NCBI RefSeq assembly: GCF_028368995.1
Contig: NZ_JAQNDL010000003.1
Location: forward strand, 2,208,001-2,272,000
Direction: 5' to 3'
Length of the DNA stretch: 64,000 nucleotides
DNA from: Nannocystis bainbridge
GTDB lineage: Bacteria; Myxococcota_A; Polyangia; Nannocystales; Nannocystaceae
Part shown: one piece after another, positions 23,490 through 28,890 of the stretch
How the letters are laid out: every line of letters starts with the position of its first letter
Numbering within the stretch: the stretch's first letter is position 1
Program-made: the position numbers and the translations under genes
Notes under the pieces: model-generated
Told to the model about the DNA's origin: nothing
The model's input: the letters and a program-made list of their open reading frames with translations, nothing else
Database searches by the model: none

Positions 23490-25244
23490 GTGCTGGCACT
23501 CCTGATCGGCGCCCCGACCCGGGGGCTCGAGGGCGTGGATGTCGACCTCGCCGACATGGCCGCCCTCGTGCGCGCTCGCGGGGGCGAGCCCGTCGTCCTG
23601 CCGCGCGCCACCTTGCCGGCGGTGCGCCAGGCCCTCGCCGACCTCCTCGGCCGCTGCGGCCGCGACGACGCCGTCCTCCTCTATCTCACCGGCCACGGCA
23701 GCGCGATCCTCAACACCGAACACGACAGCCGCGCCCTCACCCCTGCGCCCGAACGCCTGACCTACTTCGCCACCGTCGCCACCGACGGCGAAGACGCCTG
23801 TCTCTTCGACCTCGAGCTCTCGCTGTGGTGCGCCCGCCTGGCCGGCAAGACCCGCAACGTCACGGCGATCCTCGATTGTTGCCACTCGGGCACGCTCGTC
23901 CGCGGCGACCACGACAGCGTCGACGACACCGCCGCCCCCATGGCCGCCTTCCTCGCCTGGCGGGCCGCCCATCAAGACGAGATCGACGCCCTCGACGTCG
24001 AGGCTCACCCCGACGTCGTCCGCCTCGCGGCCGGCGGCATCAACGGCCGCGGCATCGCCCACGCGCACGGTAGCGCCCTCACCCGGGCCTTGCTCGCCGA
24101 GCTGCCCGCCGCCCGCGACGCCTCGTGGGTCGCCCTGTTCGCCGGCATCGAAATGCACCTAGCCCAGGCCGGCCTCCGGCAGCACCCGCGCCTGTCCGGC
24201 CCGGTCCGCCGCCGCCCCTTCGACCTCACCGAGGCCCTGCCGCCCGGCGCCGTCCCGGTGCGACGCGAGCACGGCCGGATCGTCCTCGCCGCCGGCCAGC
24301 AGCACGGCGTGCGCCGCGGCGACCTGTTCCTCCTCGACAGCGACCCGACCCGCGTGCACCACGTCGACGACCTCGCGCCGACCCATGCCGTGCTCCACCC
24401 GCGGGACATCGACATGTCCCTCGGGACATCCTCCCACGACCTGTCCTTCAGGACATCATCAACCGCCGCGCCCGACATGTCTCTCGGGCCAGCCTCCTTC
24501 GCCGTGCCGCTGCACCTCTACGGCCACGGCGGCATCGCCCTCGTGGGCCCACGCGAGCACACCGAGCCCCTGTCGCGCGCCCTCCGCTCCGCCGGTTGGT
24601 CCGTCGACCCGCGTGACCGCTCCGCCCCCCTCGCCACCCTCGAGTGCAGCGAGAGCGCGATCGTCGTCCATACCGACGAAGCTCGCCTCGTCGCCGACGA
24701 CCTCCCCGGCTGCTTCGCCATTCTTCAGCGGCTGGCCCGCAGCGCGCGCCTGCAGCACCTCGGCGCCGGCAGTCTCCGCTCGCTCGGGGTCCGGGCCAGC
24801 TGGGGCCGCGTCCGCGCCGGCGTGCTCGAGGCCCTCCCGCCGCGTGAAGCCGAGCTCGCCGACGACACCCCCGTGTTCGTGCGCCTCGAGAACACCGCCG
24901 CCGGTCGCCGCTTCGTCAGCGTGTTCTGGCTCGCCGACGACGGTCACGCCGCCCTGCTGTCACGCTCGCAGTCGATGGGCATCGAGCTCCCGCCGCGCAC
25001 CACCCACCTCCTCGGCGCTCGCCCCTTCGCTCGCGCCGCCCGCGGCGTCCTCCTGCCGCGTCGCCCGCTCGCCCCCGGGGAGCGCCGCCACGAGCGCCTC
25101 GTCATCGTCGCCAGCGAGCACCGCCAGGAGCTGTGGAGCTTCGAATCGTCTGACCCCGCTGGCACCTCGTACCGCACCGCACCCGGCGTCCACGTCGAGG
25201 TCTTCGCATTCACCGCCCGCGCCGCCGCAACGCCCCCGTCATGA
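23490..25244 (+). CDS. caspase-family (peptidase C14) protease with C-terminal DUF4384-like domain
   Basis: ALLIG, YLTGHG (His) and ILDCCHSG (Cys) dyad, GSALT...QHPRL; GTG start inferred. Confidence 0.85.
   Translation: MLALLIGAPTRGLEGVDVDLADMAALVRARGGEPVVLPRATLPAVRQALADLLGRCGRDDAVLLYLTGHGSAILNTEHDSRALTPAPERLTYFATVATDGEDACLFDLELSLWCARLAGKTRNVTAILDCCHSGTLVRGDHDSVDDTAAPMAAFLAWRAAHQDEIDALDVEAHPDVVRLAAGGINGRGIAHAHGSALTRALLAELPAARDASWVALFAGIEMHLAQAGLRQHPRLSGPVRRRPFDLTEALPPGAVPVRREHGRIVLAAGQQHGVRRGDLFLLDSDPTRVHHVDDLAPTHAVLHPRDIDMSLGTSSHDLSFRTSSTAAPDMSLGPASFAVPLHLYGHGGIALVGPREHTEPLSRALRSAGWSVDPRDRSAPLATLECSESAIVVHTDEARLVADDLPGCFAILQRLARSARLQHLGAGSLRSLGVRASWGRVRAGVLEALPPREAELADDTPVFVRLENTAAGRRFVSVFWLADDGHAALLSRSQSMGIELPPRTTHLLGARPFARAARGVLLPRRPLAPGERRHERLVIVASEHRQELWSFESSDPAGTSYRTAPGVHVEVFAFTARAAATPPS
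24411..24481. repeat. GACATGTC-like cluster inside the caspase gene
   Basis: Units at 24411, 24425, 24438, 24452, 24474; reading frame preserved. Confidence 0.7.
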
Positions 25245-26125
25245 GCCAGTCGATCCAACCCCTCCATCAATTCCTGCTCGATCGCTTCACCGCCTCCGAG
25301 CTGCGGCAGATCGTCACTTTTCATTACCCCGACGTCGGCCCGCGGCTGCCCGGCGAATCGATGTCCCACGCCGAGCTTTGCATGCAGCTGTGCACCGCGC
25401 TCGATCGCCTCGGTCTGATCGATGGTACCCTGTTCGCCCTGCTCGAGCGCGAGCGGCCGCGCTTCCGCCCCGAGATCGATCGGCTCCGCCGCCACTTCGA
25501 CGCCGCCGATAGCGGCCACGCAGCCTCCGTCTCCACCAGCGATCAACTGCTGGTCGCGTTCGTCGCCGCCAACCCGCTGCGGCTGCCCGCGCTGCGCCTC
25601 GCCGAAGAGGCCAAGGCCATCGAGGACAAGCTGCGCGGCACCAGCAACCGCTTCCGTTTCCAGTGGTCCTGGGGCGCCGGCCCCGACGACCTGCTCGACG
25701 CCGTCGTCGCCGCCTCGCCCGACGTGCTGCACTTCGCCGGCCACGGCGGCAAGAACGGCGCGCTGCTGCTTCAGACCGCCGACGGCGCCACGCACCCGGT
25801 CTTGCCCGAAGCCCTTGCCAGCCTCATCGCCGCCCGCCCGCGACGCCCGCGCCTCGTCGTCCTGAATTGCTGCTACAGCGCCATCCTCGCCAACGCCCTG
25901 CGTCCTCACGTCGACGCCGTGGTCGGCATGCGCGACGAGGTCGACGACGACGCGGCGCGCCAGTTCGCCGTCCAGCTCTACCGCGCGCTCGCCCAGCGCG
26001 ACAGCCTCACCACCGCCTTCGACACCGCCCGCGCCGCCCTGCAGGTCCACAACCTCCCCGCCGATCATCTCCCGCAGCTCTCGCTGCGCAACAGCGTCGA
26101 CCCGGCCCGCTACCGCCTGTTCTGA
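25241..26125 (+). CDS. CHAT protease with N-terminal helical (EAD/Death-like) domain
   Basis: ATGA overlap with the caspase gene; VLHFAGHG and VVLNCCYS dyad; ~85 aa helical N-domain. Confidence 0.88.
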   Translation: MSQSIQPLHQFLLDRFTASELRQIVTFHYPDVGPRLPGESMSHAELCMQLCTALDRLGLIDGTLFALLERERPRFRPEIDRLRRHFDAADSGHAASVSTSDQLLVAFVAANPLRLPALRLAEEAKAIEDKLRGTSNRFRFQWSWGAGPDDLLDAVVAASPDVLHFAGHGGKNGALLLQTADGATHPVLPEALASLIAARPRRPRLVVLNCCYSAILANALRPHVDAVVGMRDEVDDDAARQFAVQLYRALAQRDSLTTAFDTARAALQVHNLPADHLPQLSLRNSVDPARYRLF

Positions 26126-27790: not shown

Positions 27791-28890
27791 CAGGACGCGT
27801 CCTCCACCGCGAGATCGCTGGCGCAGCGGAACCCGACGTCCGGCATCCGCTTGTGATCGAGAACCTTTGTCGTCTCGTCGTCACAACGATCGGGTGCCAA
27901 GAATTTCTTGTCGTACGACAGCCAGCTCCCACCGCACGCGATCGCCCCGTCGCCCCGCAGCACGAACTCCTGCGCGTTACCGAACAGGTCCGCCACCCCG
28001 AGGCGCGACGGGAACCAGTCACGGAACGAACCGACGGGCGCGAGGTGGCTGAACGCGTCCTCGTGCTTGAACACGAACGGCGGCACGTTGGCCGACTTGA
28101 GACACTCCGCGCCGCACAGGTTCATCAGCTTTATGAATTCGCCGACGCGCCGGTAGTCGATGTCCATCACCGCGGCGATCTTGCGCTCGCTAGCGGTTGG
28201 CAGCCGGCGCCCCTGCTGTTCACAAAAGATGCGAGCCTCGGCGGCCGTGATCTGCACCACCGGGTAGTCACTCCACCGCGGATCTGGCACCGCTGGGTCG
28301 CAGTGCTGGGCATACGTCGCATCGAGTTGGTCGTGGACCCCGCCGTGCCTGACCGGCGGACACGTCAATCCGTAGCGCCCGCGCGAGACCTCGTGGACGT
28401 CGAGGCAGAACGACCGCTCCCCGCGATAGAGCCGCGGATCCGGCACCACGAGGACCATGTCCTCCGGGCAGGGCGCAGGAGGCTTCGCCGCCTCCTCCGC
28501 AGTAACCACCGCTTCGCCCGGGAGCACCATCGACTCGGGATCGATCGCTCGCCCGCCGAGGAGCCCCTGTTCATACATCACCACGCCGCCCAGCCCCATC
28601 GCCCCCAGCATCACCGCCGGCAGCCATCGCCGCGCGCTCCGCAGCTCGGCGATGTCACGCCCTCGCCGCGGCCGCTCAGCCTTCAGCGCCGCCTTCAGCG
28701 ACGCGTCGTCGATGTGCCCGTGCCGCTCGAACGCCGCCGCGATCTCCGCCGTGAGCACCAGGTGGGAGTCCTCCCAGCGAATGCCGTCGTGGATCTCCTT
28801 GTAATGCAGCATCATGAACCGCCGCAGCTCGTCCTTGGCGAAGATCGAGCACAGCAGATCCGCCATGCTGGCTGTGTCGGGACGCTTCAT
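27790..28890 (-). CDS. EAD/Death-like domain + TM + FGE-sulfatase (SUMF1) domain protein
   Basis: N-domain similar to the CHAT N-domain; TM helix; FCLDVHEV, RLPT, DLFGNAQEF, GGSW, VGFRCA. Confidence 0.82.
   Translation of the reverse strand: MKRPDTASMADLLCSIFAKDELRRFMMLHYKEIHDGIRWEDSHLVLTAEIAAAFERHGHIDDASLKAALKAERPRRGRDIAELRSARRWLPAVMLGAMGLGGVVMYEQGLLGGRAIDPESMVLPGEAVVTAEEAAKPPAPCPEDMVLVVPDPRLYRGERSFCLDVHEVSRGRYGLTCPPVRHGGVHDQLDATYAQHCDPAVPDPRWSDYPVVQITAAEARIFCEQQGRRLPTASERKIAAVMDIDYRRVGEFIKLMNLCGAECLKSANVPPFVFKHEDAFSHLAPVGSFRDWFPSRLGVADLFGNAQEFVLRGDGAIACGGSWLSYDKKFLAPDRCDDETTKVLDHKRMPDVGFRCASDLAVEDAS

Follow-up and report, generated by a model that had tools for sequence, protein, structure and literature searches.

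In this study we describe two neighbouring genes of Nannocystis bainbridge, one for a CHAT protease and the other for a membrane protein with an FGE-sulfatase (FGE, or FGS) domain, whose products carry one homologous domain of the adaptor type at their N-termini. Both genes lie in a stretch of 64,000 nucleotides (the window, whose positions serve as coordinates throughout) from a genome of 11 Mb with 70% GC. They belong to two convergent gene sets, a plus-strand caspase-CHAT set and a minus-strand set of four open reading frames (ORFs) that includes the FGE protein, here called FGE-EAD. The features on which the argument rests are listed below, where EAD stands for effector-associated domain, HMM for hidden Markov model and AF2 for AlphaFold2.

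23385..25244, plus strand: caspase (Peptidase_C14; Pfam, 2e-7) with a C-terminal region of about 340 amino acids, directly upstream of CHAT
25241..26125, plus strand: gene of the EAD-like-CHAT protease, 294 amino acids (ORF; Pfam CHAT, 2.1e-12)
25247..25504, plus strand: CHAT adaptor (EAD7-like) domain, residues 3-88 (family HMMs, AF2, Atlas)
27790..28890, minus strand: gene of the EAD-like-transmembrane-FGE (FGS) protein, 366 amino acids (ORF; Pfam FGE-sulfatase, 5.7e-15)
27820..28416, minus strand: FGE-sulfatase (FGS, C-type-lectin-like) domain, predicted periplasmic and probably non-catalytic (Pfam)
28573..28626, minus strand: predicted single transmembrane helix of the FGE protein, residues 89-106 (hydropathy, AF2 helix)
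28624..28875, minus strand: FGE-protein adaptor (EAD7-like) domain, residues 6-89 (leave-out HMMs, AF2)

One homologous domain on the CHAT and FGE proteins

The original prediction had aligned the two N-termini by eye, and both quoted sequences are present as written in the CHAT ORF (25241-26125, plus strand) and the FGE ORF (27790-28890, minus strand). The similarity was confirmed by a BLASTP match of the pair and by profiles built without either protein. BLASTP of the whole proteins aligns CHAT residues 8-83 with FGE residues 9-84, with 26 of 77 positions identical (34%) and 38 of 77 positive, at an E of 9e-7 that holds for a single comparison. At the DNA level its counterpart is an inverted repeat (I7, 25297-25327 / 28801-28831) of 74% complementarity. 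When the genome was searched by tblastn with each 95-residue N-terminus, the partner was missing from the matches even at E <= 10, so the pair taken alone is not significant at genome scale. An HMM from the 11 other copies of the domain in the same genome, searched against 78,910 six-frame ORFs, finds the CHAT N-terminus (CHAT-N) at 8.4e-19 and that of the FGE protein (FGE-N) at 1.7e-8. A second HMM, made from 177 foreign segments only after removal of 9 of 186 that were at least 60% identical to an own copy, finds them at 6.1e-22 and 2.6e-15. The shared domain has about 80 residues and is all-helical; AF2 models the CHAT adaptor with a pLDDT of 95 and helices at 4-13, 16-26, 41-54, 60-69 and 71-83, and the FGE adaptor with a pLDDT of 93-97 and the same helix order. 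A chance or compositional resemblance of Arg/Leu-rich helices in a GC-rich genome, without a common domain, would fit the tblastn searches that miss the partner. This reading is refuted by the leave-out and external-only profiles (1.7e-8 to 6.1e-22), and the identical helix pattern and the thousands of related sequences described below also speak against it, so that we give it practically no credence.

In the first protein, Pfam CHAT covers residues 67-268 with 47.5 bits for a cut-off of 24, the PADLOC chat model matches at 1.7e-5, and the motifs HFAGHGG and LNCCYS, which we take to be the catalytic His/Cys dyad, occur in this protein, in its ortholog in a second Nannocystis genome (G010) and in a paralog of the same genome, CHAT2. 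On these features the protein is assigned to the CHAT/caspase-fold proteases. Its ATG overlaps the stop codon of the upstream caspase gene, with which it would be co-transcribed. The caspase is also matched by the PADLOC caspase model (4.5e-9), and its C-terminal region is similar to the corresponding region of other bacterial proteins in the caspase family (Atlas TM 0.70-0.71). Its start is uncertain and likely near 23385, the ORF being open from 23184 and the ortholog alignment beginning at ORF residue 55; no paralog of it was found in the genome at E <= 1e-6.

The locus is conserved in G010, where 11 of 11 tested genes stand in the same order. Identity to G010 is 74% for CHAT, 65% for FGE-EAD and 82-92% for the flanking genes (sigma factor, STAND, oxygenase). 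The kinase, caspase and FGE-EAD genes are 60-65% identical between the two species, versus 82-92% for the flanks, as if the core of the locus evolved faster. All 11 genes have a dN/dS of 0.19-0.62, a range that does not discriminate among them and for which dS is unreliable at such GC; it suggests that the CHAT and FGE-EAD genes are maintained by purifying selection.

Family, class and genomic pairing of the adaptor

An iterative profile search of the six-frame ORFs settled at 13 copies (E 1e-17 to 2e-27), and a further profile search of the genome added a 14th, weaker copy at 7.9e-9. Their fusion partners are CHAT (twice), a trypsin-like peptidase, SAVED (twice, with the adaptor once N-terminal and once C-terminal to it) and a NACHT-type protein; among the other copies are several proteins with a transmembrane segment after the adaptor and several of no known family. 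A tblastn match to the CHAT N-terminus at G000:C2:882801-882998 (37% over 67 residues, E 2e-5), absent from the profile results, may be a partial or degraded fifteenth copy. Among 1.84 billion representatives the family reaches 2894 cluster representatives at E <= 1e-3 and 1062 at <= 1e-10. A Pfam scan for partners covered 133 of the best 150 matches, the 17 longer than 700 residues being left out, and gave TIR_2 (18), CHAT (7), TIR (7), Pkinase (6), Trypsin_2 (5), SAVED, PNP_UDP_1, EAD5, EAD1 and TRADD-like_N (4 each), and FGE-sulfatase, SEFIR and EAD7 (3 each). In the best 150 matches the adaptor is N-terminal in 103, C-terminal in 32 and internal in 15; 39 of them have more than one copy, and 46 a transmembrane-like segment by a crude hydropathy count, several directly after an N-terminal adaptor. 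Tandem arrays of 3-5 adaptors, seen in P0001-P0005, P0010 and L028:3686-6190 (one TIR protein has five), might provide a scaffold or hub on which multivalent complexes assemble. In the 41 genomes searched, the adaptor is present in 9 of 10 congeners, with 3-26 copies per genome, and in 4 of 31 genera; the other families of the class gave no match.

Section 30 of PMC7159879 characterizes EADs as small, non-enzymatic, mostly all-helical domains with terminal fusions, several paralogs and an adjacent second copy, one copy being fused to a core component (VMAP, iSTAND/STAND, GAP1, Ubl). The adaptor described here has about 80 residues in five helices and a short turn with no match to a catalytic family, is fused terminally to effector or signalling domains (135 of the best 150 matches are terminal), and has 14 copies in the genome with two pairs within 5 kb. 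A copy on a possible core-type component lies elsewhere in the genome, on a 1121-residue NACHT-type protein (NACHT at 1.7e-4, below its cut-off; NPHP3_N at 2.6e-6, above it), and neither protein of the window pair is fused to a core NTPase component. These fusion partners, together with the terminal position, paralogy and genomic pairing, support placing the adaptor in the EAD class.

Within this class the nearest relative seems to be EAD7, so that we regard the adaptor as a probable divergent relative of EAD7 (EAD7/EAD1 group), expanded in the genus. In one family protein (P0003) a Pfam EAD7 match (3.2e-10, residues 240-304) overlaps the adaptor-profile match (237-316, 2.2e-8). An hhalign comparison with EAD7 gives a probability of 68% and an E of 4.6e-5 over 63 columns, the EAD7 side consisting of only 3 segments, one of which is also a member of the adaptor family. 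The nearest named clusters in Atlas, a language-model resource, are EAD7 (0.95), EAD1 (0.93) and EAD7 (0.92). Direct Pfam EAD7 (PF19960) matches are weak on two of 13 own copies (E 0.077 and 0.065), and over 401 genomes of the phylum the model matches in 2 genomes, which gave two reference segments. EAD7 is named among the EADs that head STAND-FGS proteins in PMC8195603, and a congener has a protein of the layout adaptor-Metallophos-NACHT-FGE. Unlike EAD7, the adaptor stays below the Pfam cut-off in all 14 own copies, so that the whole genome has no EAD7 match above it; only 3 of 133 family members reach E <= 1e-3, and the adaptor is longer, with about 80-87 positions versus 62.

The label Death-like/EAD of the original prediction therefore holds in its EAD part, as EAD7-like, and is not supported in its Death-like part: neither fold nor profile searches matched Death, DED, CARD, Pyrin or bDLD, with tools that are weak on small helical domains, and a profile search of the PDB with the adaptor alignment gave a chance-level match only. 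The same prediction took homotypic coupling by EADs as established, which overstates the literature, since the relevant passages (PMC7159879 section 30 and PMC8195603 section 5) put it forward as a computational proposal.

Adaptor copies are paired more often than expected by chance. In the N. bainbridge genome two adaptor pairs lie within 5 kb, where 0.084 are expected, and 0.285% of 20,000 random placements yield two; this statistic overstates specificity because defence genes cluster in islands anyway. The second pair consists of a SAVED-adaptor gene directly upstream of the adaptor-CHAT2 gene (L005:7994-10071; G000:C2:1389993-1392070, minus strand). CHAT2 is 36% identical to the CHAT protease of the window, and the adaptor copies of SAVED and CHAT2 are 19% identical. 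In both pairs, then, a sensor-type domain adjoins a CHAT protease. The second pair looks like a SAVED-CHAT protease split into two genes that are joined only by the adaptor. Congeners have further pairs: TIR-adaptor lies beside adaptor-ABC ATPase, adaptor-kinase-AAA beside adaptor-TPR, and a TIR protein with five adaptors beside TIR-adaptor. In one congener (G001), an adaptor-Metallophos-NACHT-FGE protein (an open frame of 1497 codons, L029:3-4493) stands about 5 kb from a SIR2-adaptor protein (825 amino acids, L029:9608-12082). It is the NTPase-containing counterpart of the NTPase-less FGE protein of the window and corresponds to the EAD-STAND-FGS layout for which PMC8195603 names EAD7.

A receptor-like layout and a possible route to the caspase

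In the FGE-EAD protein, Pfam FGE-sulfatase matches residues 159-357 with 56.1 bits for a cut-off of 23.3, and the nearest solved chain to this domain is 1y4j (SUMF2; E 3.2e-4). Catalytic FGE has a Cys pair after a GGS[WY] motif, and SUMF2 is inactive. Aligned with 1y4j, the domain in FGE-EAD lacks such a pair behind its GGSW, and this, together with SUMF2 as its nearest solved relative, suggests a non-catalytic domain, probably a binding module rather than an enzyme.

For the FGE-EAD protein we predict, as had been proposed, a single pass through the membrane, the adaptor lying on the cytoplasmic side and the Cys-rich FGE domain facing the periplasm. Residues 89-106 have a mean hydropathy of 1.55 (2.3-2.6 in three orthologs) and lie within an AF2 helix at 86-110. 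There are six Arg in the 14 residues before this segment and a net charge of -2 in the 15 after it, and 10 Cys after it versus 0-1 before, a distribution kept in orthologs. In a kinase-transmembrane-FGE protein of a congener the parts follow each other in the same way, and the FGE region opens with CPEGM (CPEDM here). As the kinase domain of that protein must be cytoplasmic, the analogy also suggests an FGE domain outside. Such receptor kinases recur in the genus (L016:73-2085 in G003, and frames of about 733 residues in G001, G005, G007 and G010), and the FGE fold appears to be a common ectodomain for transmembrane signalling there. A more distant protein (P0124) has the same adaptor-transmembrane-FGE layout and is 31% identical over its full length; three closer homologs of FGE-EAD (P0152-P0154) are 65-67% identical. 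We saw no diversity-generating repeat of the template/variable type in 19000-36000, reverse transcriptase not having been searched for, and the longest direct-repeat families in that interval have at most 53 nt and 64-74% identity.

Taken together, a route can be outlined in which the periplasmic FGE domain would bind a foreign or damage-related ligand, perhaps with the three envelope proteins of its operon, and ligand binding would cluster the receptor. The clustered cytoplasmic adaptors could then recruit the CHAT adaptor through like-with-like contacts, induced proximity would activate CHAT, and target cleavage would lead to growth arrest or cell death. The adjacent C14 caspase is the obvious candidate target by analogy with a known cascade. 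We infer that this FGE-to-CHAT model is plausible and testable, and the full chain from receptor clustering through adaptor recruitment and CHAT activation to caspase cleavage is one that we hold tentatively, as a real possibility in which we have somewhat less than even confidence.

Its later steps are backed by two kinds of precedent. In the cascade that Steens et al. (10.1101/2023.06.23.546230) describe from Haliangium ochraceum, SAVED-CHAT becomes active on oligomerisation and goes on to cleave and activate PCaspase, and a sigma factor is among the substrates. In common with it, our locus encodes a myxobacterial CHAT protease together with a second, caspase-like protease and has an ECF sigma gene at its edge, and the same genome also has a SAVED sensor and CHAT joined only by the adaptor (L005). 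It differs in its sensor, here a membrane FGE-fold protein rather than a cyclic-nucleotide-binding SAVED fused to CHAT, and in that adaptors would provide the coupling in trans; neither a CRISPR nor a cyclase was seen among the ORFs examined. The second precedent is the FGE fold as a periplasmic binding module. According to PMC13713981, a membrane kinase has upstream of it TagR, a periplasmic FGE fold in the H1-T6SS sensor module of P. aeruginosa, and in the model given there TagR relays envelope damage by promoting dimerisation of a membrane-spanning signalling protein; the FGE-like Tsi3 binds a T6SS effector (10.1101/2021.05.21.445229). As in these cases, an FGE fold would serve outside the cytoplasm as a protein-binding module. 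Whereas those proteins, which are soluble or secreted, work by acting on a kinase or by neutralising a toxin, the FGE fold here is itself membrane-anchored, with an adaptor instead of a kinase.

Several points weigh against this route. The CHAT and FGE-EAD genes stand in convergent operons and not in one, and other partners are possible because there are 14 copies, including an adaptor-NACHT protein. No experiment showing homotypic EAD binding was found in the literature searched. Pfam EAD7 reaches FGE-N at an E of 0.077 (13.2 bits over profile positions 3-62 of 62, for a cut-off of 32 bits) and does not match CHAT-N. The topology was predicted from hydropathy and charge only, and in the full-length AF2 model the FGE part has a pLDDT of about 30-40, too poor for a fold search, so that its fold is taken from Pfam. 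Full-length FGE-EAD was found in 1 of 40 relatives searched (1 of 10 congeners), and 4 such proteins, itself included, were found among 5.8 billion in a word-indexed search limited to scoring the 8000 candidates with most words in common; with FGE-EAD so rarely found, the evidence that the pair is conserved comes from two related genomes. A scan of 31 genome and 52 metagenome loci with a gene for an FGE relative, made with short peptide patterns that can miss relatives, met the adaptor only in the locus counted as G010. Finally, FGE-N and CHAT-N share 31% identity, and a tree of the paralogs does not join them as sisters. Four other paralogs are nearer to CHAT-N (39, 37, 33 and 31%), which groups weakly (86/86) with the CHAT2 adaptor, 8 of 12 inner branches of the tree being unresolved. 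Adjacent EADs tend to be mutual nearest relatives according to the published description of the class, and the adjacent copies here depart from that tendency. A complex prediction of the two N-domains scored 0.00 for a mark of 0.32; with alignments of 15 rows each and without controls, it counts neither for nor against.

This tree position would also suit a hub-and-spoke arrangement, in which both proteins dock on an NTPase or another adaptor-bearing hub such as the adaptor-NACHT protein and their proximity merely reflects islands of conflict genes. The 14 copies, one of them on the NACHT-type protein, the published pattern in which a core NTPase component bears one of the copies (PMC7159879, section 30) and the proteins with 4-5 tandem adaptors, possible hubs themselves, are all in line with it. 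Yet the adaptor-NACHT gene is located on a different contig (C1:1628440), its adaptor scores lowest of all 14 (7.9e-9), the nearby HTH-STAND-TPR protein is without an adaptor, two separate sensor/CHAT pairs lie within 5 kb, above chance, and the CHAT/FGE-EAD pair is kept together in G010. We judge such a hub rather unlikely. The convergent, separate operons are likewise what would be expected if the minus-strand operon were an unrelated envelope module, with a function such as immunity to or binding of incoming toxins, and with an adaptor role apart from CHAT and caspase and only domain shuffling behind the similarity. Three further envelope proteins in that operon lack a link to proteases, FGE2 has many paralogs in the genome, and FGE-like T6SS immunity proteins act by binding, as reported in 10.1101/2021.05.21.445229. 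A cytoplasmic adaptor from a family of conflict effectors and sensors is nevertheless hard to explain on a pure immunity protein, and in the only other genome that has it, the FGE-EAD ortholog co-occurs with the CHAT ortholog; we find this explanation the least probable of those that accept the homology.

Compared with the published "EAD principle" (Kaur et al. 2020, 2021; PMC7159879, PMC8195603), the family is alike in its small, helical, non-catalytic terminal domain with many paralogs and in having copies on effectors (CHAT, trypsin, TIR, kinase, PNPase) and on sensors or NTPases (SAVED, NACHT, FGS) in neighbouring genes. It is unlike in that the window pair is without an NTPase, vWA-MoxR or GTPase core component, that adjacent copies in the window are not nearest relatives, and that the FGS domain stands behind a transmembrane segment and is predicted to be periplasmic, while the main text of those papers treats it as an intracellular sensor. 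In this sense, EAD-TM-FGS (TM, transmembrane) without an NTPase is a new form of the principle. The layout was not found in the main-text passages of Kaur et al. or in literature searches, and the supplements may list EAD7-TM-FGS.

The likeness to metazoan death receptors (Fas/TNFR1 - FADD - caspase-8, as outlined in PMC8195603) extends to a Cys-rich ectodomain, a single transmembrane helix, a helical adaptor on the cytoplasmic side and, on a protease of the caspase fold, a second adaptor that matches it. It is an analogy and not homology, as sequence and fold searches detected no relation of the adaptor to Death, DED or CARD and the ectodomain fold differs. That the system is an NTPase-free bacterial counterpart of a death receptor, with a periplasm-facing FGE/FGS receptor that senses envelope attack (by phage, contact-dependent toxin or predator) and signals solely through EAD clustering to CHAT and the C14 caspase, we think unlikely. 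If it were so, many 'adaptor-TM-X' proteins of the family would form a whole class of such transmembrane receptors.

If the coupling between the FGE and CHAT proteins is real, conflict systems can take input from outside the cytoplasm through a lectin-fold receptor, and these genes offer a compact two-to-three-gene system for testing the unproven idea that EADs are Death-fold-like adaptors, with a built-in comparison in the SAVED sensor and CHAT protease that the same adaptor joins. The family is mostly missed by the Pfam EAD7 model, and a broader model would improve the annotation of defence loci.

Neighbouring genes of the locus

The remaining features of the syntenic block and its surroundings are the following.

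18700..19410, plus strand: DUF2807 'adhesin head' protein adjoining the ECF sigma factor
19411..20085, minus strand: ECF-type sigma factor, edge of the syntenic block (Pfam Sigma70_r2, 4.1e-6; Sigma70_ECF, 6.1e-5)
20657..23398, minus strand: Ser/Thr kinase-TPR protein, divergent from the caspase-CHAT operon (Pfam Pkinase, 1.3e-30; TPR_12, 4.4e-11)
26265..27152, minus strand: orf295, predicted secreted, last gene of the operon (hydrophobic signal-like N-terminal segment, 8-26)
27152..27790, minus strand: orf212, membrane protein of no known family in the same operon, with overlapping stop/start (transmembrane-like segment 168-186, hydropathy 2.17)
28887..29732, minus strand: FGE2, second FGE-fold protein, first gene of the minus-strand operon (Pfam FGE-sulfatase, 1e-33)
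29787..30032, minus strand: small YjzC-like ORF between FGE2 and the STAND gene (58% identical ortholog)
30986..33547, minus strand: HTH-STAND-like NTPase-TPR protein (Pfam HTH_3, 4.3e-7; AAA_22 and NACHT weak, below cut-offs)

In the minus-strand operon each stop codon overlaps the next start: FGE2 with FGE-EAD, FGE-EAD with orf212, and orf212 with orf295. FGE2 has a hydrophobic N-terminus with a transmembrane-like segment at 13-31, and its ortholog in G010 is 79% identical. The orthologs of orf212 and orf295 in G010 are 67% and 78% identical, and neither protein has a match in Pfam, NCBIfam or PADLOC. A gasdermin-like reading of orf212 or orf295 was rejected by eye on their transmembrane and signal features and the lack of a family match. 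A scan for promoters and terminators gave no promoter-like sites and 9 terminator-like ones (3.3 expected), none of which bears on operon structure.

Around the core of the locus, orthologs in G010 are 60% identical for the kinase-TPR protein, 86% for the HTH-STAND-TPR protein, in which the family HMM found no adaptor copy, and 92% for the ECF sigma factor; a 2OG oxygenase gene is also among the flanking genes. The Cys-rich C-terminus of orf295 (26265-26400) seems by eye to resemble the short Cys-rich tail of an adaptor-transmembrane protein of the same genome (L006:8214-8879), a tail with a weak DUF3761 match (E 0.27).

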